Positions 6,426 to 40,407 of a stretch of DNA of 64,000 nt are shown here, piece after piece. The DNA is from an uncultured Chloroflexia bacterium (GTDB taxonomy: Bacteria; Chloroflexota; Limnocylindria; QHBO01). A program made the position numbers and the translations under genes. Location of the stretch: positions 960,001 through 1,024,000 of the forward strand of contig CAWGTN010000002.1 of the NCBI GenBank assembly GCA_963825525.1. The letters are read 5' to 3'. Numbering within the stretch: position 1 is the stretch's first letter; the number at the start of each line of letters is the position of its first letter. The notes below the pieces were generated by a model. It did no database searches, was not told the origin of the DNA, and saw only the letters and a program-made list of their open reading frames with translations.

Positions 6426-7424
6426 ATGATGACCACACATCACGCTCCATCACACCCGGTGACCTCGTGGGCACCGAAGGCACGACCAGTGAAGGTGCTA
6501 CTGGCCCTCGACGGCTCGGAAGCGTCGCTCACCGGCCGCGATCTCGTCGCCAGCCTGGACTGGCCAAGCGAAAGCACAATTCACCTCGTGACCGGGTATC
6601 ACGTCCCGGTGGACTGGACCGGCGGCGTCGGGGCAACCATGGACTGGATCGGCGACCTCGAGGACCAGTATCGTGACGAGCTGGTCGACGAGCTGAAGAC
6701 GATGGCCGAACCACTGGTCGAACGCGGACTTGCCACCGTCCCGCACGCGATCCGTGGCCGGCCGGCAACCGTGATCGTCCAGGCCGCCCGTGAGCTGGAC
6801 GTCGACCTGGTCGTGATCGGCTCCCGCGGCCACGGCAGGCTCCATTCGATGCTCCTGGGGTCCGTGGCCACCGAGGTGTGCACGGATGCGCCATGCTCCG
6901 TCCTGGTGGCGCGGTCGGGGTCAGCACGGCGAGTGCTCGTTGCCACTGATGGGTCCGACACTGCGCGGGCGATCCCGCATCACCTTGCGACGTTGGGCAT
7001 CTTCGAGGACCTCCCGTGCGATGTCGTGTCGGTGCTGGTCCGGGATCCGGGCCTGTTCCAGTTGTTCACCGGCCTCTACACGCTCGGTGATGATCGACTT
7101 CGCCGCATGCGCGAGGGACTCGAGGAGCAGCGGCAGGCGGCACTGGACAGTGCGATCGGTGACCTCGCCGCAACTGGCGTTGCGGCGACACCCCACGCGG
7201 CGGAGGGAGACCCGGCGCACGAGATCATCGCGATGGCCGAGCAGTGCCGGTCCGACCTCATCGTGACCGGCGATCGGGGGCTGCGCGGTCTGGAACGGAT
7301 GGTCCTGGGGAGCGTCGCGCGCAACCTCCTGACGCACGCGACCGCCTCGGTGCTCGTGACACGTCCTGACCTGCAGGCGGCGCCGTCTGCAGGCCGAGCA
7401 GCCCACGTGGGAGCAATCCGATGA
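6426..7424 (+). CDS. Tandem-domain universal stress protein
   Basis: Two USP domains: ALDGSEAS...GSRGHG..LLGSVA and ATDGSDTA...GDRGLRG..LGSVA. Confidence 0.93.
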   Translation: MMTTHHAPSHPVTSWAPKARPVKVLLALDGSEASLTGRDLVASLDWPSESTIHLVTGYHVPVDWTGGVGATMDWIGDLEDQYRDELVDELKTMAEPLVERGLATVPHAIRGRPATVIVQAARELDVDLVVIGSRGHGRLHSMLLGSVATEVCTDAPCSVLVARSGSARRVLVATDGSDTARAIPHHLATLGIFEDLPCDVVSVLVRDPGLFQLFTGLYTLGDDRLRRMREGLEEQRQAALDSAIGDLAATGVAATPHAAEGDPAHEIIAMAEQCRSDLIVTGDRGLRGLERMVLGSVARNLLTHATASVLVTRPDLQAAPSAGRAAHVGAIR

Positions 7425-8158
7425 AGATTCGGGACGTGATGACCGATGCGGTGGCGACCGTCTCCCCGGAAACGACGCTTCATGAGGTAGCCCAGGTGCT
7501 GACCGACCGGCGGGTGTCGGGGTTGCCGGTCGTGACCAGCGATGGCACGTGCGTCGGCGTGATCTCGGAGGCCGACCTCATCGCGAAGCAAGCGGGACCG
7601 CAGACGGCGCGCCGAAGGCCCCTGGATTGGATTCTCGGCGAGTCGCCGGACCCCGAACAGCAGCGACGCCGCGCAGCCACCACCGCGAGCGAGGCCATGT
7701 CCTCGCCGGTCTTCACGGTGGAAGCGGATCGCCCGCTGCGGGATGCCGCGGACCGAATGGTGGCAAGTCACGTCAACCGTCTCCCTGTCGTCGACAACGG
7801 CCGGCTGGTGGGCATCGTGACGCGCGCCGATCTCGTGCGAGCCTACCTGCACATGGACGAGGAGATCGAGCATGCCATCCGCGATGACCTGCTCGATCAC
7901 ACGATGTGGCTGGATCCGTCGCGCTTCCGGATCAACGTGCGTGAGGGCCACGTCACCATTCGGGGTACCGTCGACCGACGGTCGACCGCAACCATCGTCG
8001 CCAAGCTCATCGGCCTGCTCGACGGCGTGGCCGATGTGACGAGCGAGCTCGCCTGGGAGCTCGACGACTCGAAATTCGGGCCGCCGATGGCCGGGGAGCG
8101 GGAGCCGGGCGCCGCGTCGATGTCTTCACGCGAACGTCCACGCGCCAGCCACCGCTGA
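7421..8158 (+). CDS. CBS-pair plus BON domain protein
   Basis: IRDVMT, VSGLPVV, VNRLPVVDNGRLVGIVTRADL; C-terminal BON-like VREGHVTIRGTV. Confidence 0.9.
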   Translation: MKIRDVMTDAVATVSPETTLHEVAQVLTDRRVSGLPVVTSDGTCVGVISEADLIAKQAGPQTARRRPLDWILGESPDPEQQRRRAATTASEAMSSPVFTVEADRPLRDAADRMVASHVNRLPVVDNGRLVGIVTRADLVRAYLHMDEEIEHAIRDDLLDHTMWLDPSRFRINVREGHVTIRGTVDRRSTATIVAKLIGLLDGVADVTSELAWELDDSKFGPPMAGEREPGAASMSSRERPRASHR

Positions 8159-28606: not shown

Positions 28607-29503
28607 CTACTGGCCGAAGCCGAAGGACGCGAGGAAGGCCAGGTCATCGGCCTGGTCCACCCGGTAGCCCCCACCGTTGGTGCAGTTCGGGCTGATGCCG
28701 AACGAGTTCACGGCCACGATGGTGGTGGTGGTTCCGGCGAAGATCGGACCGCCGGAGTCGCCGAAGCACGTGCCGCCCTTCACGTTGTTCGAGAAGTTGG
28801 CGGCGATCCCCTTGCCGGTGCCATATACGCCATTGAGGTTGTTCAGCTTCAGCGTGGCAACACGGCGCGTGTCACCCCCGCTGAGGCGCTCCTCGAGCCC
28901 GTACCCGACCGCCGTGTATGTCTGGCCCTTGACCTTGGACAGGGCGTCCAGCTGACCGAGGGTCGGCAGCGACGCGTACTGCGCGCCGGCGGGAAGGGCC
29001 ACGGCCTGGCCGAGCTTCACGACGCCCAGGTCGTACAGATAGAACGCCGCGTCGTCGTACTGCGGGTGCGGCGTGGCCACACCGCGCGTCCACTCGGAGC
29101 TTGCGTCCAGGGCAGCGCTCCACCCGACGTAGCGGTCGGCATTCGAGGTGAACGTGCTGCTCGGCGGGAGGATGTCGTAGTTCGGGACCTCGGCAAAGCT
29201 GACCCATACGTCGTTGCCGCCAGAACCGCCGGTCGAGGTCGTCTCGACGCCATTGCTGCCCACGCCGAACGTGCAGTGGCCGGCGGACAGCACGGTGGTG
29301 CCATCCAGCAGCGCGCCGGTGCAGTTGAACCAGCCGCCCGGATCGTCGAATCGGGTGCTCGCCACATCGGGAACGTAGAAGAGCAGCTGACCGACCTGGG
29401 GATGAGCCCCACCGTCCGGGTCACCGTGGGTGATGGCGGCGGCCGGAGCGGCCAGGACAAGGCTCGCGACGAGTGCGAGAAGCAGGGGAAGTTTGCGCAG
29501 CAT
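28607..29503 (-). CDS. Secreted trypsin-like serine protease
   Basis: Signal peptide MLRKLPLLLALVASLVLAAPAAA; LSAGHC, DLGV, CFGDSGGP triad. Confidence 0.92.
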   Translation of the reverse strand: MLRKLPLLLALVASLVLAAPAAAITHGDPDGGAHPQVGQLLFYVPDVASTRFDDPGGWFNCTGALLDGTTVLSAGHCTFGVGSNGVETTSTGGSGGNDVWVSFAEVPNYDILPPSSTFTSNADRYVGWSAALDASSEWTRGVATPHPQYDDAAFYLYDLGVVKLGQAVALPAGAQYASLPTLGQLDALSKVKGQTYTAVGYGLEERLSGGDTRRVATLKLNNLNGVYGTGKGIAANFSNNVKGGTCFGDSGGPIFAGTTTTIVAVNSFGISPNCTNGGGYRVDQADDLAFLASFGFGQ

Positions 29504-29692: not shown

Positions 29693-29768
29693 GCGGGAGT
29701 AGCTCAGCTGGCAGAGCGGCAGCCTTCCAAGCTGCATGTCGCGGGTTCGATCCCCGTCTCCCGCTCCA
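29693..29768 (+). tRNA. tRNA-Gly (TCC)
   Basis: Acceptor GCGGGAG/CTCCCGC, anticodon arm GCAGC-CT-TCC-AA-GCTGC, T-arm GGTTCGATCC, encoded CCA; 76 nt. Confidence 0.97.
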
Positions 29769-29769
29769 C
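29718..29769 (+). repeat. attL: 52-bp direct repeat (3' two-thirds of tRNA-Gly)
   Basis: GGCAGCCTTCCAA...CCCGCTCCAC identical to 38268-38319. Confidence 0.95.
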
Positions 29770-29990
29770 TCACCACACGCGCTGATTATCGTGCTCAGAT
29801 TGGCCCTTGACAGGCCTTCGGGCTCGCCGAGTCTTCCGAGTCTGATAGAGCAAGACATGCAGCGCACACGACCTCCCTATCGCGGGCACACGTAGCGCGC
29901 AGATCCTGGCTTCTGTTGGGCTAGGGCGAGGTCGTCTCAGCAGCCGACACGAGTTCTCGGCGCGGCTTCGCCACCGCGGAGCCAAGCAGC

Positions 29991-31022
29991 ATGCCCGGCA
30001 AGACGACCGACGAATCACGCGACTATCGCGCTGGCCACGCCGACGCCTACGACGCGACCGCACCACTAGAGCCGCAGTTCATCGAGTTCCTCGAGGACTC
30101 GGCGGCGGTGATCAACGCCCGCACCGAGTTCAAGTATCGCGCCGACTTTGCCCGCTTCACCGAGTGGCTAACCGCCGAAGACATCCCGGCCACGCTGGCA
30201 GCCCTCGAGCGCCGCGTGCTCAACAGGTACGTGGCCTGGCTCAAGTCACGCCCGGCGCCACCGGACGGAACGGCACGCTCTCGAACCACACCATCGACTC
30301 CTATATCCGCACCCTGCGCACCTTCGCGCGCTACCTGGTCGGCGACGGCCGCTTCCCGCGTGATCCCTTCTACGGGCCGCGTGCGCCTCGTCCGCACCTC
30401 GGTCAACGTATCCAGCGCGCCGCGGCCGCGGCCGATGTCGCCGCCTCGAGCAGGGTACCGCCGGGACAGAGCCGCTTTGCCTGCGTGACCGCGCCGTGCT
30501 GCTCATCGTCCTCGACGCGGGGTTGCGTACCGGCGAGTTCACCCGGCTCAACCTCGAAGACGTGGCTCTCGACGGCGGGTACCTGGAGATCCACGAGAGC
30601 AAGTGGAATAACAGCGCGTGGTCCCCATCGGCAAGCCGGTGGTGGTCGCTCTACGGCGCTACCTGCGCTGGGGCAGTCCGAAGCTGACCGGCATCGCGCT
30701 CGATGATGCTCCGGGGACAGCTCCACTGTTGGTCGGTCGCACGGGTGAGCGGCTGACCGAGAACGGGTTGTACCAGGCGGTGCGGCGCGCCTACCGCCGT
30801 GGCGGGGGCAAAGGATCACTGGGGCTGCACGCCTTTCGTCGCCTGTTTGCTGCGCACACCCAAGACGAAGGGGTCGATCAGCGCGTCACGCAGGACAACA
30901 TGGGTCACGAAGACGCTCGTGTTACCAAGCTCTACGCCGGAGCCACCCGAATTGACACCGCCCGTGCGGCTCTCAGCGGTAGGACGCCGCTGGCGTTGTT
31001 GCGAACGCGCGTTCGCCGATAG
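29991..31022 (+). pseudogene. Tyrosine recombinase/integrase, frameshifted as sequenced
   Basis: Fragments across frames: N-terminal helical domain, RDRAVLLIVLDAGLRTGE, ESKW, HAFRR, MGHEDARVTKLY; at least 3 frameshifts. Confidence 0.88.
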
Positions 31023-31534
31023 GGTGATGCAGCATCACGCGCGCGCTTGCTCGGCTTTTCACAAATCTAGTCCGAAGGAGGCAGCGGGCCCGTTGGAGAT
31101 TCGGCACATACGGCCCGGCTTCCAGCGTGCACGCCGGCCAGATGCTGCGCGCCAACGTCGACCCTCTGGTCGACCTCGCGCACCAGGGCGCTTTCTCCTC
31201 GATACCGAGACCCCCGACTTGCTGATCCGAAGTCAGGAGACCGCCGCTCGCTGCGACTGCCCTATCGCACGCTCACACTTGAGCCTAGCAGCCATGTCAG
31301 TACCAAAACCGACTTGATCGGAACGGGGCCCTCGCTGCCGCTACCGCGAGATTCAACGACCTGGGCCGCGCCTGACCGCATTGCTGGAGGGGCACGCCTA
31401 TGCGGTCTCGCTGCTCGCGCAGTCTGGTCGGGATCCGCGTAGGCGCGCCGCTGGAGAGCGTCGAGTTCGGTAGGCAGCGCGGTCGGATTGCGCTGCCGCG
31501 CGGCGATGACGAAGCTCCGCGACAGCTCGTGAGG

Positions 31535-31747
31535 TCAGCCCAGCGCTTCGCGATAGGTGTCGATCGCAGCCGTAGATCCGCCGAGCTCGTTGAGGTAATC
31601 CGCGTACTGCGTCAGCACCTGGCGCTGTAGAGCCGCTGAGCCGCCGGACTTGGCAAGGGCTACCGCGCTCCCGAAGGCCGCACGTGCAGCCTCCGTCGCA
31701 CGTCGGTCTCCGGGGTGAGGACTGCACTGCCGAAGTTTCGACGCCAC
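31535..31747 (-). pseudogene. Helical-repeat (TPR-like) gene remnant
   Basis: EAARAAFGSAVALA...VLTQYADYLNELGGSTAAIDTYREAL, no convincing start. Confidence 0.35.
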
Positions 31748-32378
31748 CGACGCTTTCCGCGTTGTTGTGGATCTTTCCTAGCGCGAACTAGCGTCGGAGA
31801 CTGCGACGAGGATTCGTCGTCTCGGCCGATCCGCCGCGGTCTTCGAATCGACCATTAGTCCACACTACCGCGAGCGGAAACTCGCGACTGAGCCACAGGA
31901 CACGGTCTCGAGGTTGCTACATTTCAACCGGTGACCTTGATGCCGATCGAAGCGGACCGGATATGGCGGATGCTCGCACCGCGCCCGTCGGAGCGAGTAC
32001 AACGGTCTCGGTCAATTGAGGGTGATGCGCGTCCCGCGTGCTCGCTTCGCCTGCGTGAAGGTCGCCATTGCCCTTGGCGCGAGCGGCTTCCTGCTGAAAA
32101 CCTCGCCGACAGAGGAGATCGTGGGTCGGCGCGCCGCGGGCGGCGGCCGCGTATTCGGGGCGCATCAGCTCGGCTTAGCCGCGTAGAGCTGGCACGGCAG
32201 CTCAGCGAGCTTCGCACGGGTCCACGTAGCCGAAGACTCACTTTCGCTCTGGCGGGTCGCGTGCAGATCACGATTGCGGGAGCAGCAACACGGGCCCGAC
32301 CTGGTGGCGCGCCGCAGATTCGCGGACTCTCGGCGAGGTCGAGGCATGTACCGAAGTTCGCGATGTCACGCCGCGGGC

Positions 32379-32606
32379 CTAGTCACCACCGAGCAACCGC
32401 GTCAACACCTCATCACGGAGTCCGTCGGGAACTGGCGTGCCGCACCGCTCACAGTCAACCTCTTCCCACTCACCGTGGTCTTCGTACTCATAGGCCAGTT
32501 GGGGCTGGCTGTCCTGATCGCCAATCGACCACCAGCGTTCTACCTGAGCCCGATAGGTACCTCTCCAGGCCTTGGCCCTACAGGCCGGGCAGCTGGGGGT
32601 TGCCAT
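32379..32606 (-). CDS. Small zinc-ribbon protein (75 aa)
   Basis: GGAGG RBS; CPAC ... CERC. Confidence 0.6.
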   Translation of the reverse strand: MATPSCPACRAKAWRGTYRAQVERWWSIGDQDSQPQLAYEYEDHGEWEEVDCERCGTPVPDGLRDEVLTRLLGGD

Positions 32607-32929
32607 CTGTCGAGTCCTCCGTCGCATACTGCGACTGAGGCTAGTTCAGAGCGAATGTCAAGGTTCAGGCCCGCTCCGCAATCGCACGTTCCAGACGGGG
32701 AGCAATCGCCTGATAGACACTCGGCCGGCTAACCGCATCTTCTTGGGAGCTTGCGCTCCTCGAGCGTCAGTTGGCGACGATGATGCCAACGGCGAGCCCG
32801 TAGCGGTCGGGCCGCACGTTCAGGGTCTCGTCGATGGCGCCTTGACGATCGTGCGCAGGTAATCGGCCATGCCGAGAAGTACTTGTTCAGCACGATCGTC
32901 GGGATCAGCTCCTCGACAATCGGCTGCGC

Positions 32930-33294
32930 TCAGCTGAATTGTCCGCTACAGGTTGCATTCCCACAGTGGCGTGACCACAACAAATCGTAAATCGAACTGC
33001 TCGACACCGTGCTGGCGATGTTTTGCTGAGGTCCGTAACGCGTGACGTAGCAGACGCCTTCGAGATACCAGCGGACGACGACTTGGACGTTGTCACAGCT
33101 TGAGAGTTCGTCGGACTCTGCGCGGGCGTCATTATCCGTTTCTTCCTGGTGCAGCCAGTTCACGTCACAAGGGCCTGGATATTGATGAGGTCGCCGGCAT
33201 GACGGTGTCGGATGGCCCCGAGGGTGATCGTGCTGAGAACGAGAAGCGAGGTGAACGCAAGGAGCAGGGCTGTTGTCATTGAGCGTTTGGACAC
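32930..33294 (-). CDS. Secreted Cys/His protein, paralog A (one frameshift)
   Basis: AAGGAGGT RBS (33301-08), GTG start, signal peptide; restoring one G near 33174 gives RHRH..PCDVNWLH..DELSSC..RWY..YVTRYGPQQN..LWSRHCGNATC. Confidence 0.78.
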
Positions 33295-33877
33295 CGAACT
33301 ACCTCCTTCATGCAGGTTTGCTTATCACACCTTTTACTGCACCGCATTGACGCATTCACCCAGTCGTCCAGGGACCCACCTTGATCCTCAACAGCCTGGC
33401 GTAAGGATTGCGCTTCCTCGACATAGGACGGCATTTCGTACCGAGCTCGCGCAGGCATTCGGACAGATCGGCCAGAAGGGACTTCTCTGTAAGATCCGGA
33501 TGCAGTCCTAAGCGATAGCTCTCGGCGACATGGACGTAGAACTCGGCCTTACACTCGTAGACAATGGGAGACGGGTCGTTCTCCGGATCTTCTCCGCCAC
33601 CCACCGTTAGTGCGTCGATCTGACCGTACTCATCGAGCTCAAGGTCCACCACAGTAACGCCAGCGTCCTCGATGCAGCCGACATAGGCCAGGCGAGCTCG
33701 CTCGTGCTCCGCTTCGCTGACCGAACCGTCCTCGAGAATAGCGCGTTGGAATTCCGAGGTCTCAGGCAAGATCGAGCTCAGTCTTGACTGCCAATCATCG
33801 AGTTGAGTGCTCGGAGAGGGGATCGAATCGCCGCCGGAGCATGCCGCGAACAGGATGGTCGCGAAGCCGGCGGCCAT
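33276..33877 (-). CDS. Lipoprotein (possible immunity/accessory), frameshifted near 33441
   Basis: Lipobox LFAA-C; acidic helical body SEFQRAILEDGSVSEAEHERARLAYVGCIEDAG; several Cys; 3' end uncertain. Confidence 0.7.
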
Positions 33878-33881
33878 CGCC

Positions 33882-34246
33882 TTAGGAGAGCTGTGCGGAA
33901 CACGTTGCGTTGCCGCAGTGGCGTGACATAGGATGCTGTAAATCTGAGCGGAGGTCACGCTCGAGAAGAGGTTCTGCTGCGGGCCGTAGCGTGTCACATA
34001 ACCGAGGTCCTGCATGTACCAGCGCACAACGGCCTGGACATTGGCGCAGTTGGCCAGTTCGTCTGTAGTAACCCAGGCGTCGTTATTGGTGTAATTGATG
34101 TGCTCCAAGCGATGTCGCACGAGTCCTGAATGTTCTGAAAATCGTCCCCATGAACGTGACGGACATGGGTTGCTGCGACGGTGTGGCCGCCAGGATCAAC
34201 AAGGTGACAAACACAATGGCGCGTGTCGCGGCCCCCGGAGTCTCAT
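33882..34246 (-). CDS. Secreted Cys/His protein, paralog B (four one-base frameshifts)
   Basis: ATGA-coupled to paralog C; reconstructs as signal peptide + RHVH..SCDIAWxH..DELANC..RWY..YVTRYGPQQN..LWSRHCGNATC. Confidence 0.75.
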
Positions 34247-34625
34247 GACGGCTGAATGCATCCGGCGGCGATGCCGTCAGAGCCGCAATGTTGGGACCAC
34301 AGGATAGAGAGAACGTCTACCGAAGCAACGCTGCTGAAGAGATTCTGCTGAGGACCAACCACTGTCACGTAACCGAGGCCCCACTGATACCACCTGGCCC
34401 GTACCTCGACCACTGGCAACTGCTGCGCTCGTCCGTCCACGCGCTGGCCGAGTCGTCGGTGTAGTTGACATGCTTCCAACTGATGTCGCACGCCCCGCCG
34501 TTCAGATTGTTCACCATGCCACTGTGAGCATGCCTGACGGTAACGGCCGATACCGGCGCAGACAGAAGGGATAGGAGCAGGGCAAGCCCAGCAAGCGCGA
34601 CCGTAGCTTTGTGACGCCTCGACAT
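34243..34625 (-). CDS. Secreted Cys/His protein, paralog C (one frameshift)
   Basis: Signal peptide MSRRHKATVALAGLALLLSLLSAPVSA; RHAH..ACDISWKH..DERSSC / RWY..YVTVVGPQQN..LWSQHCG..C. Confidence 0.8.
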
Positions 34626-34735
34626 GGCAACGTCTCGCTGCGGGTTCTCCAATTGCTATGGTGCCACTGCTGTCAAGTAGCATTTACTCGCGAGTTGAAT
34701 GTGCTCCTCTGGGGCCAGGATGCCCGGTACTGGCC

Positions 34736-35800
34736 CTAGCTTTCCTTCAGCTGCGAGAGGATGGAGCCTCGGCCGTGTACAAGTGACGCCAGTGGCCCTA
34801 CGATCAAGGCCAGCGCCAGCGCGCTACCTACGCTCCGCGACGCGAAGGCAATGTGGTCGACGGGCGGTAGGGATCCCACGGCAGCCTGGAGAGCCACGGA
34901 CCAAGCTAGGGCACACGCGGCAGCCAGCCGAATCACTAGGGCATGCTCGATCGCGCACATCACATATATCCCCACAATTCCGAGACCTAGCGAGCGGTAG
35001 AGCCCGATTTCGCGCCTGCGCCCAGGTACACGCGGCGAGTGCCATGACGATCAGCGCGGCCCCCACGGCCCAGCCACTTGCCGAGGGCCGCGAGCGCAAC
35101 TGTGCTTCGGGCTTCGCGGCCAAGCGCTCGTCCGGAAGCGCAGCGACTACTAGTGGATCGTTCTCCTCACGAAACCAGTAGCGCAGGGTCTCGTCAGCTG
35201 AGGGGCTCGGCGCCGCAAACTCGACCCAGCATTCCTCGACCAGCGCGTCCGGCGACAACGGCATGAGGATCCACCGATCGCCGGGAGCGGCACGCGCTTC
35301 GGTGTCTAGAACTGCACCAATTGGCATGGGTTCCACAGCGCCTGAGGCAATAAGTAGCCACCGACACTGAGGTGCAGCTCATCCGCTAGACCTGCGCCCA
35401 CCACTAGTGCATCTGGCAGCCGCGATCGGGTTGATGTCCGGTTGCTACACCGACGTACCCGCCAATGTACCCACCGAGCTGAATCCTCGTGCACGGTGCT
35501 GTCGTGAGGGTAGTGACCTCGTAAGGGTGACGCCCGGCACAGGTATGACGCCGTCAACCGCCCACATCGCCAAGCACGTGGACGCTCGAAGGCCATAGGA
35601 ACTGCTGACTATGTATGTCGCTTCGCCGTGACGGAGCCGCTAGCGATGCAAGTCTGCGTCGTCACTCGCCGCCCGCAGCTCAACGCTGCCGACGGCAAAA
35701 AGGAGCACTGAGACGATACTTGCGATCAGGAGCGAGCGCGGACCGCCGGCGGCGAGGTTGCGAATGCCTCGGACGCGAGCACGCGTACTGTCCATCCCAT
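34736..35800 (-). pseudogene. ABC exporter permease (MacB/FtsX-like topology), disrupted as sequenced
   Basis: Starts MGWTVRVLASEAF 3 nt after ATPase stop; N-terminal TM, extracellular region (ECWVEF), C-terminal TMs ending SILSQLKES; several frameshifts and one in-frame TAG near 35640. Confidence 0.65.
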
Positions 35801-35803
35801 TGG

Positions 35804-36429
35804 TCAAGCTCCGCCTTCTAGGACACCATCTCGAAGGCTGTAGCGGAAACTGCAGCGCTCCGCGAGATCAGAGTCGTGCGTAGCGATGATCAACGCGGAA
35901 TTCTGGGGGACAGAGCGAACCAGCAGGCTGGCGACGCGCGCCGACGTGCTGGCGTCGAGATTGCCGGTTGGCTCGTCGGCCAGGATCAGATCTGGTTCAC
36001 CCACGAGCGCTCGGGCGATGCAGACGCGCTGCATTTCGCCGCCCGAGAGCGTATCGGCACGACGGTGCCCAAAGCCAACAAGACCGACAGTCTCGAGGTT
36101 ACCTCGGATACGTCCTTCGAGCTCGACTACGGGAGCAGCGAGCGCATAGCACCGAAGTTGCACATGTCCTTGACGCTCCGTCGTGACAGCAGATTAGCCC
36201 CTTGATGGATATAGGCAATGGTGGGCTGGTCGCCCCGAGTGGTAACGCCAACGGATCCGCGCGTAGGGTGTTGTAGGCCTCCGATGATGCTTAGAAGCGT
36301 TGTCTTGCCAGACCCGGAGGGTCCCATGATCGCAGTCGAGCTGCCGGATGGGAAGACGATGGAGATATCTTGCAGCGACCACCGGTCACGGCCGTAGCGG
36401 TGCCACACCGACGTCAGCTCGACCGACAT
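35804..36429 (-). CDS. ABC ATP-binding protein (MacB/LolD type), frameshifted near 36165
   Basis: [11 protein letters not shown] in one frame; [24 protein letters not shown] in the next. Confidence 0.88.
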
Positions 36430-37472
36430 GGCTGCGGCTCCAGGATCTCCATCGGATTCGCGAGGATCGGCGTGCCCGACTCAATACCGGTCCCCGATAC
36501 CTCGACATGCGTAAACGATCCAGCTCCGACCTCGACGGCGACCGGAGAGAATCCCGGGCCGTCTTGGACCCAAACGCAATACAGGCCGGCGGCGTCGGTA
36601 ATCAGCGCCGAAACCGGCACCGCAAGCGCGGTGACGCTGGTCGATGGCCGCGCAGTGGCCGCAACCGTCTCGCCCGCATCGACGACGCCTTCATATGCTT
36701 GCGGGTCTGCGAGGTAGATGCCATCCGATGACGTCACTAGCTCATAGCTGGATGACCCGATCTCAACCTCCCAATCGACCGTCGGGTTAAGCACCGGCGT
36801 CGTCCCGTCCTGACTCGCGAACGTCATAGAGACTAGTGGGGCCCGAGACTGCAGAATCGAAGATCCCGCCGACGGCGCCTGCTGCCCGGTCTCGATGTTG
36901 ATCTCAGCAATCTGAACCGCGGTGCCGGGCAACCATACGATCCAGGTTGGGTCGAATGGTTGGGCGGAGTCGCGGCCAAGCGACCTCGCCCACTCGGCAA
37001 CCGTGATGGACAGTTCCTGATCGAATATGGATGGCGTCGCAGACTCTGGCGGCTCGAGTCCGAGGGCTATCAGCAGCTTGCGTAGTTGAACGACGTCAGG
37101 ACCAGTTGTCCCTACAGAGAGTTCCCTCCAAAAGGGCGTGTCGGCCGCGATAGCCATGATCGTGATGCCCGAAACGGCGTATGCCGGATCACCTTGTTCG
37201 AGTTTGTCACCAACGCTAATGGGGACACCGGTGACGACTCCAGACGCGCCAGAGGCGTACACTGCGGGAGCATTGCCAAGTACCGGCGTTCCAACAAGGG
37301 GAATTGGCCGGTGCAATGAAATCTCGCCGACGCTAACGACTATCGGTTCGGGTCTGCTTGGCACGTTCGCCAGGCGCTCGTCTGCTGCAAACCGCAGGAG
37401 TGCGAGAAAGACGATGGGCGCGGCGAGGAAGAAGACGGCCACCAATGCCGTGTGCCGCCATGACGAACTCAT
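36414..37472 (-). CDS. Membrane-anchored efflux adaptor with peptidoglycan-binding-like insert
   Basis: N-terminal TM; SGVVTGV..GD barrel-sandwich half; FWRELSVGTTGPDVVQLRKLL PG-binding-like; LAVPVSALI C-terminal motif. Confidence 0.8.
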   Translation of the reverse strand: MSSSWRHTALVAVFFLAAPIVFLALLRFAADERLANVPSRPEPIVVSVGEISLHRPIPLVGTPVLGNAPAVYASGASGVVTGVPISVGDKLEQGDPAYAVSGITIMAIAADTPFWRELSVGTTGPDVVQLRKLLIALGLEPPESATPSIFDQELSITVAEWARSLGRDSAQPFDPTWIVWLPGTAVQIAEINIETGQQAPSAGSSILQSRAPLVSMTFASQDGTTPVLNPTVDWEVEIGSSSYELVTSSDGIYLADPQAYEGVVDAGETVAATARPSTSVTALAVPVSALITDAAGLYCVWVQDGPGFSPVAVEVGAGSFTHVEVSGTGIESGTPILANPMEILEPQPCRSS

Positions 37473-37525
37473 CGTCAAATGGTACTTGCACGGTAAACAC
37501 AGCACGTAGGCGCGGAGACGATGCC

Positions 37526-38083
37526 GTGGACAAGCGCAGCAGACGGTCGCGGGCGCACGTCTCAACATGGCTCCTTGGCGTGGGATCGCTCGTAGGGCTT
37601 CTGGCCGTATTGGGTGTCATCGCGATGGTCAGCACTCTGGGGGAGCGAGCTGGTCAAGCCGTCTTGGCACCAACGGCCGCCTCACCAGCGCAATCGATTG
37701 GCGTACGGCCAACCGGCCTTCTGAAGAGCCAGACTCCCGTTCTGGGCCAAACCTGCGTAGTGGTTCGATTTGATGACGCCGCCTATCGGGACGGCGAGGT
37801 GCCGATCTGGCTATGGCGTTCGAACCAGCCGGACCTGTGCGGTGACCCGCTCGATGAGACGGTCGTCGCGAGTACGGCGATCCTCGAGCCGCGGCTTACG
37901 GCGGGGGGTTCCATGCGCTACGACGTGATGTTCGCGGTTGAGCGACCTGCCGGTTCTGGTCAAGATACATTCCTGAGCTTCTTGACCACCCGAGAACCAG
38001 GCGACCAGTTTCGGGCGATTGGGCCTGCTGACAGGAACACCCTCTTCGGTCCGCTCCCGCAATTCGAATCGGGAGACGGGTAG
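37526..38083 (+). CDS. Membrane-anchored hypothetical protein, divergent from exporter operon
   Basis: GGAG + GTG; basic N-terminus, single TM, extracellular domain with two Cys. Confidence 0.6.
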   Translation: MDKRSRRSRAHVSTWLLGVGSLVGLLAVLGVIAMVSTLGERAGQAVLAPTAASPAQSIGVRPTGLLKSQTPVLGQTCVVVRFDDAAYRDGEVPIWLWRSNQPDLCGDPLDETVVASTAILEPRLTAGGSMRYDVMFAVERPAGSGQDTFLSFLTTREPGDQFRAIGPADRNTLFGPLPQFESGDG

Positions 38084-38267
38084 AGGTGATGACGGGCACT
38101 GACTCGCGCTGAGACTGGGCCCTTGGCGACGATGAATTCTCGGCTTGCCGCGGCAGAAGTCCGGGGGGAGACCTTGGCCTTGCTAGTCAGTAGTTGACTT
38201 GATATTGTCCGCGTAGCACACTGACGCCGTCCAGCAGCTCAGGAGAGCTCCGCGCTCCGTGAAGACA

Positions 38268-38319
38268 GGCAGCCTTCCAAGCTGCATGTCGCGGGTTCGA
38301 TCCCCGTCTCCCGCTCCAC
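38268..38319 (+). repeat. attR: 52-bp duplicate of tRNA-Gly 3' part
   Basis: Identical to 29718-29769; lacks tRNA 5' strand and D-arm. Confidence 0.95.
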
Positions 38320-38327
38320 ACCTCCAC

Positions 38328-38666
38328 CTATCGGCAGGGCGTCTCCTCGCTCCAGGCGGGGTCATCGGGGTAGCGGCCAAGGATGTAGTCGACTTCGCAC
38401 GGCGCCCCGAGTCCGAACAGGGGCCGCCGGATCACGAGCTGAGCAAGATCCTGCATCTCGAACGTGGTCGAGGGCGGCCCGGCACCCAACAGGTCATCGC
38501 CCCAGGCCAGACATGCCTCGGCCGATGCGGCGGACGCCTCGCAATGGATCGTGACGTCGGGGTCGACCGTCGAGGTCGCCTGCACCGAAGGACGCGTCAC
38601 CACGAAGCCGCCGATGACGATGATCATCACCACCGCCACTCCCAGGATGCCCACCCGCGCTCGCAT
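38328..38666 (-). CDS. Small exported/membrane-anchored hypothetical protein
   Basis: N-terminal hydrophobic helix, 4 Cys; CATACT box 6 nt before ATG. Confidence 0.65.
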   Translation of the reverse strand: MRARVGILGVAVVMIIVIGGFVVTRPSVQATSTVDPDVTIHCEASAASAEACLAWGDDLLGAGPPSTTFEMQDLAQLVIRRPLFGLGAPCEVDYILGRYPDDPAWSEETPCR

Positions 38667-38718
38667 GAGCCCAGTATGCCGCGCGGGGCCGGGGACGAGG
38701 TGGCTATCCTCGAACCCG

Positions 38719-40407
38719 ATGCGTCCCCTCGAACCGCCCTATGACTCCATCGCCGCCGGCCGCCCGGCCCGCATCGCGATCGACGGGACGCATCTTCTCA
38801 GCAATCGCCTGCTGACCAAGGACTTCGCGTTCCCGGCCGACGAACGCGAGGCGTTCAACCTCAACGGACTGCTCCCGGATCGGGTCATGACCATCGAGGA
38901 GCAGGTGGAGCTCGAGCTCACTCGACTGCGGCGCAAGGACGACCCGCTCGAGCAGTACATCGGCCTCGCTGCACTGCAGGACCGCAACGCGACGCTCTTC
39001 TATCGGGTCCTGGCCGAGAACCTGGAGGAGCTCCTGCCGATCGTCTACACCCCAACCGTCGGCCTTGCCTGCCAGGAGTTCAGCCATGTCCTGCGCCGCA
39101 CGCGAGGCGCGTGGATCACCCCGAACGACCGCGACCGCATCGGCGAGATCCTGCGGAACGGTCCCTACGACGACGTGCGCCTCATCGTCGTCACCGACAA
39201 CGAGCGCATCCTGGGACTCGGCGACCTCGGCGCCGGCGGGATGGCCATCCCGATCGGGAAGCTGGCGCTCTACACCGGCGCCTGCGGCATCTACCCCGGC
39301 GTGACGCTGCCGGTGAGCCTGGACGTGGGCACCGACAACGCCGACCTGCTCGCCGATCCGCTCTACATCGGCCACCGGGCGCCTCGCCTGCGCGGCGCCG
39401 AGTACGACGCATTGGTCGACGCCTTTGTCGGCGCCGTGCAGGAGACCTGGCCCGGCTGCGTGATCCAGTGGGAGGACTTCAAGCAGCACAACGCCCTGCG
39501 CATCCTGGATCGATACCGCGATCGCGTCCCGAGCTTCAACGACGACATCCAGGGCACGGCAGCCGTGGTGCTGGCCGGCGTCCTTTCCGCGGGCCGGCTG
39601 CTGGAACGGCCATTGGCGTCGCAGCGGATCCTGCTGGTGGGATCAGGGGCGGCGGGCATCGGGATAGCCCGGCTGCTGCGCGCCGCGATGAGCGCGGAGG
39701 GCATGACGGATGACGAGATGTCGGCGGCGGTGACGCTGGTCGACTCGCGCGGGCTCGTCCACGCCAGTCGAGACGATCTCGATGATGCGAAGCGGGCGCT
39801 CGCCACGCCGGAAGCGGTGATCTCGTACGTGCCGGAGCGACTGCTCGAGGCGACGATCGAGGCGTATCGGCCGACCGTGCTGGTCGGAACGACCGGCGTC
39901 GCCGGCACGTTCACGGAGGCCGTGGTGAGGTCCATGACAGCCGTATCCGAGCGGCCGGTCGTCATGCCGCTCTCGAATCCGACCCCGTTGGCCGAGGCTC
40001 GCCCGGCCGACATCGCCGCCTGGTCCGATGGTCGCGCAATCACGGCCACCGGCAGCCCGTTCCCGCCGGTCGACGGTCGCGAGATCGGCCAGGCCAACAA
40101 CGTCTTCGTCTTCCCCGGCCTGGGGCTCGGGGCGATCGTCTCCGGTGCGCGCCGCATCAGCGACGGAATGGTGGTTGCCGCTGCGCGGGCCCTCGCCGAT
40201 GCGGTCGACGCGAACCGCCTTGCCGGGGGCGTGATCTATCCGTCCGTCGGCGATCTGCGATCGGTGGCTCGAGCGGTCGCGGTGGCGGTGGCCCACGAGG
40301 CGGTCGCGACCGGCCTGGCCGATGCAAACGACCACCTGGATGCCGATATCGACGCCGCGATGTGGTGGCCCGAGTACGTGCCCTACATCCGCGCCTCGGA
40401 CACCTGA
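38719..40407 (+). CDS. maeA: NAD-dependent malic enzyme
   Basis: PIVYTPTVG, VTDNERILGLGDLG, QWEDF, FNDDIQGT, GSGAAG, PLSNPT, QANNVFVFPG. Confidence 0.95.
   Translation: MRPLEPPYDSIAAGRPARIAIDGTHLLSNRLLTKDFAFPADEREAFNLNGLLPDRVMTIEEQVELELTRLRRKDDPLEQYIGLAALQDRNATLFYRVLAENLEELLPIVYTPTVGLACQEFSHVLRRTRGAWITPNDRDRIGEILRNGPYDDVRLIVVTDNERILGLGDLGAGGMAIPIGKLALYTGACGIYPGVTLPVSLDVGTDNADLLADPLYIGHRAPRLRGAEYDALVDAFVGAVQETWPGCVIQWEDFKQHNALRILDRYRDRVPSFNDDIQGTAAVVLAGVLSAGRLLERPLASQRILLVGSGAAGIGIARLLRAAMSAEGMTDDEMSAAVTLVDSRGLVHASRDDLDDAKRALATPEAVISYVPERLLEATIEAYRPTVLVGTTGVAGTFTEAVVRSMTAVSERPVVMPLSNPTPLAEARPADIAAWSDGRAITATGSPFPPVDGREIGQANNVFVFPGLGLGAIVSGARRISDGMVVAAARALADAVDANRLAGGVIYPSVGDLRSVARAVAVAVAHEAVATGLADANDHLDADIDAAMWWPEYVPYIRASDT

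Follow-up and report, generated by a model that had tools for sequence, protein, structure and literature searches.

The question raised by this locus is what three small, apparently secreted proteins do for a bacterium that encodes them beside a transport system on a mobile element, and why none of the three can be read through in the available assembly. The locus lies in a stretch of 64,000 nucleotides from an uncultured Chloroflexia bacterium (contig CAWGTN010000002.1 of assembly GCA_963825525.1, positions 960,001 to 1,024,000 of the forward strand), called the window below, and the three genes, here named A, B, and C, occupy its minus strand between 34625 and 32930. They had been noticed in a sequence-only reading, which proposed that single missing bases hide three paralogs of an unrecognised family of secreted, Cys- and His-rich proteins. 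We find that A, B, and C are real genes, almost certainly intact in nature, and that they stand together with a lipoprotein gene and the genes of a predicted pump in a five-gene module, carried in the window by an integrative island. This genomic context favours a toxin with self-protection.

Three hidden genes and their family

Three-frame translation of the minus strand, together with the list of open reading frames (ORFs), located the genes as follows.

34625-34243, minus strand: gene C, putative secreted Cys-containing protein; one frame break near 34409; intact version P0005
34246-33882, minus strand: gene B, putative secreted Cys-containing protein; four breaks near 34228, 34178, 34103, and 33928; intact version P0002
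33294-32930, minus strand: gene A, putative secreted Cys-containing protein; GTG start; one break near 33173; intact version P0004

The coordinates and the single-base breaks that had been proposed hold up: the six breaks all displace the frame in one direction, each equivalent to one missing base, every one lies in a short homopolymer run (of G/C or of A), and A, B, and C are free of nonsense changes. The TGA of C and the ATG of B overlap as ATGA, and AAGGAGGT stands six bases upstream of the GTG start of gene A, both as described before. In a search of the genome against itself, the C-terminal piece of A matched the region of B at an E value of 1.8e-18 (56% identity) and that of C at 1.4e-11 (50% identity), which places the paralogy of the three genes beyond chance.

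Uninterrupted versions of these genes exist in sequence databases. P0004, from a Logan contig, is an intact A of 116 amino acids that reads through the break, which is also spanned by P0010, a fragment holding the first 44 residues of A. P0005 is an intact C of 127 amino acids that likewise reads through its break, and P0002 represents B with 111 amino acids, spanning 3 of the 4 breaks, its called start lying downstream of the first. P0002 and P0005 share a single ENA contig of 8943 bp. Aligned by tblastn, pieces of P0004, P0002, and P0005 fall into one frame of the window after another, with 96-100% identity. Compared with these intact copies, the earlier reconstructions were nearly letter-perfect, the exception being the break in C, which reads C-Q-W-V-E-V and not C-x-V-V-E-V.

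Short-read evidence came from Logan contigs of 4 soil-metagenome runs (X1 to X4), all from one study and possibly including the source sample, that were aligned to positions 30000-39000 of the window; the listing of runs for this stretch included none of RNA. Runs X1 and X3 both insert one C behind 33173, in A, and one behind 34409, in C; gene B is spanned by two short-read contigs with 3 gaps each. At all of the 12 indels listed (12 of 19), the window is the sequence that lacks a base, it has an extra base at none of them, and 8 of the 12 fall in C runs. The substitutions are also lopsided, with A>C the commonest kind (22 of 51 in X1, 12 of 30 in X2, and 20 of 36 in X3), and no common motif was seen around the A>C sites between 30000 and 39000. 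Differences from the short-read contigs concentrate in the island, and the flanking genes are spared.

Taken together, the intact database copies, the restoration of the frame by short reads at A and C, and the one-sidedness of the indels make it very probable that the breaks in A, B, and C are errors of the assembly consensus. An island riddled with one-sided errors of this kind yields only fragments to gene callers, and its flanks appear clean. We consider it improbable that the frameshifts are instead genuine, with a decaying island, A, B, and C as pseudogenes in the sequenced strain, and the intact copies derived from sister strains. Such decay would account for breaks that are dense within the island and absent from the flanking genes, for the aberrant 3' end that the lipoprotein gene of the module also shows in its ENA copy (see below), and for an X2 contig of depth 2.4 that joins 30419 to 36917, which points to a heterogeneous population. 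This contig omits 6497 bp, including the genes for A, B, C, the lipoprotein, the permease, and the ATPase, and its junction could be either a population deletion variant or a chimeric contig. Against genuine frameshifts stand the indels that are always missing from the window (12 of 12 listed, 8 at C runs), a pattern typical of consensus error, the lack of nonsense changes in the three genes, substitutions that are one-sided too (A>C in 22 of 51 in X1), and identical corrections in two runs. Because the four runs stem from one study that may include the source sample, genuine frameshifts in the sequenced strain keep a small share of the probability. A pseudogene-rich genome, also considered, was abandoned in view of the short-read contigs and the intact database copies.

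The proteins encoded by A, B, and C match no named family, as had been suspected. Neither the fragments nor the intact A and B had a Pfam match at E <= 10, the secreted homologs from the two other loci with readable context (L009 and L010, described below) had none at E <= 0.1, no NCBIfam model matched the family, and a family profile searched against the sequences of the PDB found nothing at E <= 10 save one chance lipocalin row. The family is also very rare. An exhaustive HMMER profile search of 1,835,955,588 representatives gave 9 matches at E <= 0.001, a word-based search with A gave 2 proteins of 2 candidates, and a broader alignment gave 8. With cluster members and the L009 gene added, the known set comes to about 18 sequences of full length (three subfamilies and one outlier), or about 13 clusters at 90% identity in collections of some 15 billion proteins. 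Intact homologs thus exist outside the window. A pattern scan of one genome per species, covering 185,579 species, found one relative beyond the window's own genome, and 0 of 175 genomes of the same taxonomic family (a count that includes three genomes flagged as unpublished) contain a homolog. None of the viral contigs encodes a relative in two alignments, plasmids gave no tblastn match for P0005 or P0023, and a limited literature search found no published work on the family, which does not show that there is none. On these comparisons, the secreted family is new.

All N-termini of the family consist of a basic stretch, a hydrophobic stretch, and a small-x-small site, judged by eye and by a hydropathy scan, which supports the signal peptides that had been read at the starts of A, B, and C. 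Invariant in 16 aligned sequences are three Cys, one His (in W-x-H), one Val, and two Gly, and a fourth Cys, one Pro, and one Ser are nearly so. The four conserved cysteines of the earlier description therefore stand, three invariant and one nearly. Its four conserved histidines do not: only the His of W-x-H is invariant, the H-x-H that directly follows the predicted cleavage site of the signal peptide occurs in two of the three subfamilies and is missing from the third, and the His before C-G is confined to the three copies in the window. The motif G-P-Q-Q-N is specific to the window's subfamily. A metal site built from four conserved His was dropped as a candidate, since a single His is invariant.

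The expected beta-rich character agrees with two models of differing quality. An AlphaFold2 (AF2) model made from 16 sequences is all-beta at a poor mean confidence (predicted local distance difference test, pLDDT, of 53), and the Foldseek rows that it returned are generic beta-sandwiches, none at E <= 0.001 and meaningless at that confidence. The Atlas model of the homolog P0013 (pLDDT 0.80) has unnamed beta proteins as its neighbours, at template modelling scores of 0.68 and 0.65. The precursor of about 120 amino acids would probably give a mature protein of about 90 amino acids, rich in beta structure and with its four Cys in two disulfides.

The five-gene module and its lipoprotein

The remaining genes of the module were identified by Pfam on the pieces of the ATPase and by tblastn with intact homologs from two other loci, L009 (a metagenome-assembled genome of the Chloroflexota) and L010 (a metagenome contig).

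37568-36414, minus strand: membrane-anchored adaptor of the membrane-fusion kind, with a putative peptidoglycan-binding stretch; aligned by tblastn along its full length with the adaptors of L009 and L010 at 31-35% identity
36429-35804, minus strand: ATP-binding cassette (ABC) ATPase of the FtsE/LolD/MacB group; one break near 36164; Pfam ABC_tran in both pieces
35819-34739, minus strand: MacB/FtsX-like ABC permease, fragmented by frame breaks; tblastn to the L009 and L010 permeases
33877-33334, minus strand: lipoprotein gene with lipobox L-F-A-A-C; frame broken twice, near 33440 and 33370; found by tblastn using the lipoproteins of L009 and L010

Along the minus strand of the window, the genes follow one another in the order adaptor, ATPase, permease, C, B, lipoprotein, A. 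The same five-gene module (adaptor, ATPase, permease, one or more secreted proteins, and lipoprotein) recurs at every locus with readable context (3 of 3), namely the window, L009, and L010, and all five proteins are homologous across these loci at 26-51% identity. L010 has the five genes in the order of the window, and in L009 the pump operon converges on the pair of secreted-protein and lipoprotein genes. The neighbourhood of exporter and lipoprotein genes on which the sequence-only reading had staked its family is thus found wherever context can be read. A scan of 32500-38300 found no more promoters and terminators than in shuffled sequence. In L009, a Mutator transposase gene (6466-7752, minus strand; PF00872, E 2.4e-73) directly adjoins the secreted-protein gene.

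The pump is, as far as its sequence can place it, of the MacB kind, since the ATPase lies nearest to FtsE, LolD, MacB, DevA, and the Lcn972-type exporters and the topology of the permease fits. The ATPase of the window is 49-51% identical to that of L009 by tblastn, and the short-read contigs add a T behind 36164. For an ATPase homolog, ABC_tran scored 104.6 bits, the only Pfam or NCBIfam cut-off passed by any protein of the module. The best NCBIfam rows of the L010 ATPase are FtsE, LolD, YbbA, the Lcn972-type exporter, DevA, and MacB, with FtsE at the top (161 bits versus a cut-off of 265); because all of them stay below their equivalog cut-offs, the placement holds at the level of the group. 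The permease of the window aligned by tblastn with those of L009 and L010 in two frames at 26-29% identity (E 4.5e-11 and 6.8e-16), and the short-read contigs add bases to it at 35020, 35340, 35437, 35519, and 35759. On PF02687 (FtsX), the L009 permease reached 24.3 bits versus a cut-off of 25.5 and that of L010 gave no match. By hydropathy scan, both have one N-terminal transmembrane (TM) segment, a hydrophilic loop of about 190-225 amino acids, and three C-terminal TM segments. The adaptor has a single N-terminal TM segment by the same scan, and its homologs gave matches that are all weak and below cut-off (in bits, with cut-offs in brackets: Biotin_lipoyl_2 19.8 (29.8), RND_mfp 25.4 (94.9), and PG_binding_1 21.8 (23)).

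The lipoprotein gene, between B and A, was recognised through tblastn matches to the L009 lipoprotein (40% identity over 33883-33440) and the L010 lipoprotein (35% over 33856-33425). Its family has no Pfam or NCBIfam match and numbers 13 proteins found among 8000 scored candidates in the collections of about 15 billion proteins, and on this comparison it is a second unnamed, new family. Both small families occur together on short contigs of 8943, 3287, and 3224 bp. A lipobox-like Cys, preceded by L-x-[AG]-[AG] and a hydrophobic stretch, was seen by eye in 10 of 11 aligned lipoproteins, the eleventh being incomplete at its N-terminus. Run X4 and the ENA contig, but not X1, have one more base at 33879, in the spacer that separates the stop codon of B from the lipoprotein start (ATG); this base alters the spacer only and leads gene callers to extend the lipoprotein ORF upstream.

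The model of the lipoprotein has good confidence (pLDDT 88.3) and shows a beta hairpin surrounded by helices. Foldseek of this model against the PDB gave no match at E <= 0.001. The wide VIA fold search reached at most a Z of 5.9, for 53 residues of a helical part only, in CARD-like bundles, and a relation to CARD domains was set aside as a common helical arrangement. In predicted complexes, the L009 lipoprotein and its secreted partner scored 0.17, 0.88, and 0.80 in three runs (median 0.80), and the best of 3 controls scored 0.01. Of 80 solved complexes, 58 attained this mark, as did 2 of 110 mismatched pairs; contact agreement among the runs was at least 38% and the pLDDT of the partner at least 37. 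The score is unlikely to reflect a remembered solved structure, because neither partner has a solved relative. In the predicted interface, residues 79-92 of the partner are paired with the hairpin of the lipoprotein (residues 93-101), the strands in contact being 94-99 of the lipoprotein and 82-87 of the partner, and the corresponding positions are 55-69% identical among A, B, and C versus 44-55% elsewhere in these proteins. Structure prediction supports binding of the secreted protein by the lipoprotein. The two families are both new and very rare, and they offer a testable pair, with a confident lipoprotein model and a strongly scored predicted complex.

Possible functions of the module

Which precedents apply depends on the envelope of the host. 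Searches of the window's own genome (92% complete) for the outer-membrane markers OEP (PF02321), Omp85, and LpxC came back empty, and the same searches were positive in 7, 7, and 4 of 14 control genomes, respectively; WhiB was likewise not found in this genome, and control genomes were positive. Judged by these markers, the host is probably a monoderm and not a typical actinobacterium, and because it looks monoderm, the Gram-positive MacAB precedents can be applied.

We tentatively favour the reading that the module combines a Sec-exported antibacterial protein with self-protection by the lipoprotein and the pump, and regard it as possible and only just short of probable. It draws on the mobility of the module, its extreme patchiness, the diverged tandem copies, the precedents of monoderm MacAB systems and nisin, and, as the one structural prediction, the complex with the lipoprotein; export, disulfides, toxicity, and self-protection are all inferred by analogy. 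The secreted proteins would act as antibacterials on the envelope of competitors. At the surface of the producer, the membrane-anchored lipoprotein would capture them, as NisI does with nisin, and the adaptor and MacB-type pump would drive them off the producer's membrane in the manner of YknXYZ with SDP or NisFEG with nisin. Three diverged copies could broaden or vary the target range, with one lipoprotein in common. The module itself spreads horizontally, in this case by way of an integrative island at a tRNA-Gly gene.

The logic of the module resembles, by analogy, that of known bacteriocin self-immunity and MacB systems. In the available part of PMC5985334, the Bacillus system YknXYZ (adaptor, ATPase, and MacB-like permease) protects against the cell's own SDP, a Sec-exported, disulfide-bonded peptide, and AS-48EFGH of Enterococcus protects against the cell's own cyclic peptide AS-48. 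Both are described there as MacAB-type modules of monoderms with an adaptor able to bind peptidoglycan, and the same three pump components occur here. The differences are that SDP has 42 amino acids and one disulfide, whereas the proteins here have about 90 amino acids and four Cys; that a lipoprotein takes the place of a YknW-like membrane protein, of which there is none here; and that the sequence similarity to YknXYZ and AS-48EFGH is at the superfamily level only.

In the nisin system, the lipoprotein NisI binds nisin and cooperates with the ABC transporter NisFEG, according to the available portion of PMC8538875. NisI/NisFEG, and equally SpaI/SpaFEG, share with the module the combination of a surface lipoprotein and an ABC pump; here, binding by the lipoprotein is predicted and the pump adjoins. 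Unlike the lanthipeptide nisin, the protein encoded here would be an unmodified, Sec-exported product of about 90 amino acids, its pump is MacB/FtsX-like with an adaptor rather than of the LanFEG kind, and the module is without genes for modification, a leader protease, or a two-component system. The lipoprotein model had no match to NisI or SpaI in the fold searches (Foldseek at E <= 0.001; best Z of 5.9 in VIA).

Lactococcin 972 (PF09683) offers a further likeness, as a Sec-dependent, unmodified, small beta-rich bacteriocin encoded beside an ABC transporter. On the model of Lcn972-type exporters, TIGR03608, the L010 ATPase scored 143.9 bits versus a cut-off of 254.85, and it scored higher on FtsE and LolD. 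Intact A and B had no match to PF09683 at E <= 10. None of 301 genomes of the phylum contains PF09683, nor do any of 14 controls, and this search is therefore uninformative. According to PMC8538875, Lcn972 is without cysteines, whereas the family described here has four conserved Cys and is partnered by an FtsX-like permease, an adaptor, and a lipoprotein.

Several points weigh against the antibacterial reading. No known bacteriocin is connected to these proteins by sequence; an Atlas feature search ranks the Lactococcin_972 cluster only 17th, with a score of 0.75. MacB-type pumps also export cargo that is not toxic, for example dispersin, as the available text of PMC5985334 describes. A single lipoprotein for three diverged proteins is unusual in specific immunity. 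One of the three complex runs failed (score 0.17; partner pLDDT 38), and conservation across the family is not enriched at the predicted interface (0.54 versus 0.54 elsewhere in the secreted protein, 0.53 versus 0.61 in the lipoprotein), so interface conservation is unusable as support. The fold model of the secreted protein is poor, at the AF2 pLDDT of 53 given above, and the short-read runs that restore the frames belong to a single study possibly containing the source sample. Finally, this lineage may have a truncated lipoprotein, since the lipoprotein gene runs out of frame at the 3' end in the window, where two corrections are needed to reach the conserved C-terminus, and the ENA copy P0025 deviates as well, leaving the family reading after Y-E-M-P-S and stopping nine codons later; alternatively, both assemblies may err.

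The rival that survives best, which we hold to be somewhat unlikely, is that the secreted protein is the non-toxic, dedicated cargo of its own MacB-type pump, with a surface-coat, adhesion-modulating, or signalling role, and that the lipoprotein is its anchor, chaperone, or receptor. Pumps of this type do expel small folded proteins exported by Sec, and PMC5985334, in the part available, names STII, which has two disulfides and leaves through MacAB-TolC, and dispersin, a 10-kDa protein of two three-stranded beta sheets that leaves through Aat. Like these, the proteins here are predicted to be small, folded, and Sec-exported, and a dedicated MacB-type pump could expel them from outside the cytoplasmic membrane; they are of the same size class and similar in their beta character, an anchor would account for the predicted complex as well as an immunity protein would, and a single lipoprotein for three paralogs fits. 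The STII and dispersin pumps, however, require an outer-membrane duct, and this account of the module is weakened because no such duct was found, with OEP, Omp85, and LpxC not detected in the 92% complete genome. There is also no sequence similarity between those cargoes and the secreted proteins here. Moreover, the monoderm MacAB modules in the accessible part of PMC5985334 are protective, and a mobile, very patchy distribution with diverged tandem copies suits competition over an envelope structure.

Metal binding or handling is a quite unlikely alternative, in which the H-x-H and the His of W-x-H would hold a metal and the Cys-containing lipoprotein and the pump would traffic or detoxify it. 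One His is invariant, H-x-H follows directly on the predicted cleavage site in two of the three subfamilies, and the adaptors weakly match the CzcB/NccB model (E 2.2e-5 and 1.9e-3, far under the cut-off). But that His is the only invariant one, the third subfamily lacks H-x-H, and the CzcB matches are confined to the generic C-terminal part of the adaptor. A metal-sensing regulator, a P-type ATPase, and an importer are all absent from the module, and such patchiness is rare in metal systems.

Wall remodelling of the FtsEX kind, with the outer domain of the permease controlling the secreted proteins or the lipoprotein as hydrolase regulators, can draw on FtsE as the top model of the ATPase (161 bits versus the 265 of its cut-off), on the FtsX-like permease, and on the putative peptidoglycan-binding stretch of the adaptor, but it is very unlikely. 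FtsEX systems are core genes and are not known to include an adaptor protein, whereas this module includes one and sits on a mobile island, with homologs in 0 of 175 related genomes. Pfam and NCBIfam searches of its small proteins also turned up no family of hydrolases or coiled-coil activators.

If the antibacterial reading is correct, the module would represent a new kind of Sec-dependent protein bacteriocin together with a new immunity fold, from lineages known almost only through metagenomes, and it would add another monoderm MacAB-type pump to those that act in self-protection. A bolder form of this reading, also possible and a shade less secure, is that uncultured soil monoderms make a new class of protein antibiotic exported by Sec, with a new lipoprotein immunity fold, a MacB-type pump, and diverged toxin copies, all in one mobile five-gene cassette.

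The integrative island and its flanks

The module is carried by an 8.55-kb element inserted at a tRNA-Gly gene, with the following borders and integrase.

29693-29768, plus strand: tRNA-Gly (anticodon TCC), left border of the island; ARAGORN
29713-29769, plus strand: left 57-nt direct repeat, the 3' part of the tRNA-Gly gene; repeat family D2
29770-38319: integrative island, 8.55 kb, with a G+C content of 57-66% versus 68-71% in the flanks
29991-31022, plus strand: tyrosine recombinase gene, next to the tRNA gene and in pieces
38263-38319, plus strand: right border, a 57-nt copy of the 3' part of the tRNA-Gly gene at 96% identity; repeat family D2

These borders, the integrase, the deviating composition, and an empty site in a relative identify the element as a tRNA-targeted integrative genomic island. 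The integrase is fragmented because of frame breaks, and the short-read contigs add a C behind 30257 and another behind 30443. One of its pieces (30618-31022) matches the XerC and XerD models at E 1.5e-12; it stays under their cut-offs because it is partial. In one relative (G102), the tRNA gene directly abuts the gene that in the window comes after the island, which marks an empty site. Two others carry other DNA at the same place, about 1.4 kb in G090 and about 5.5 kb in G125. The tRNA-Gly(TCC) site is thus an integration hot spot in this genus, and the repeats, the integrase, the low G+C content, and the variability of the site among relatives mark the module as mobile cargo at this spot. 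The genus is represented mostly by fragmented assemblies.

Just before the tRNA gene, positions 28607-29480 of the minus strand encode a secreted trypsin-like serine protease with a signal peptide and the motif G-D-S-G-G-P. In relatives, this gene is present at 78-80% DNA identity.

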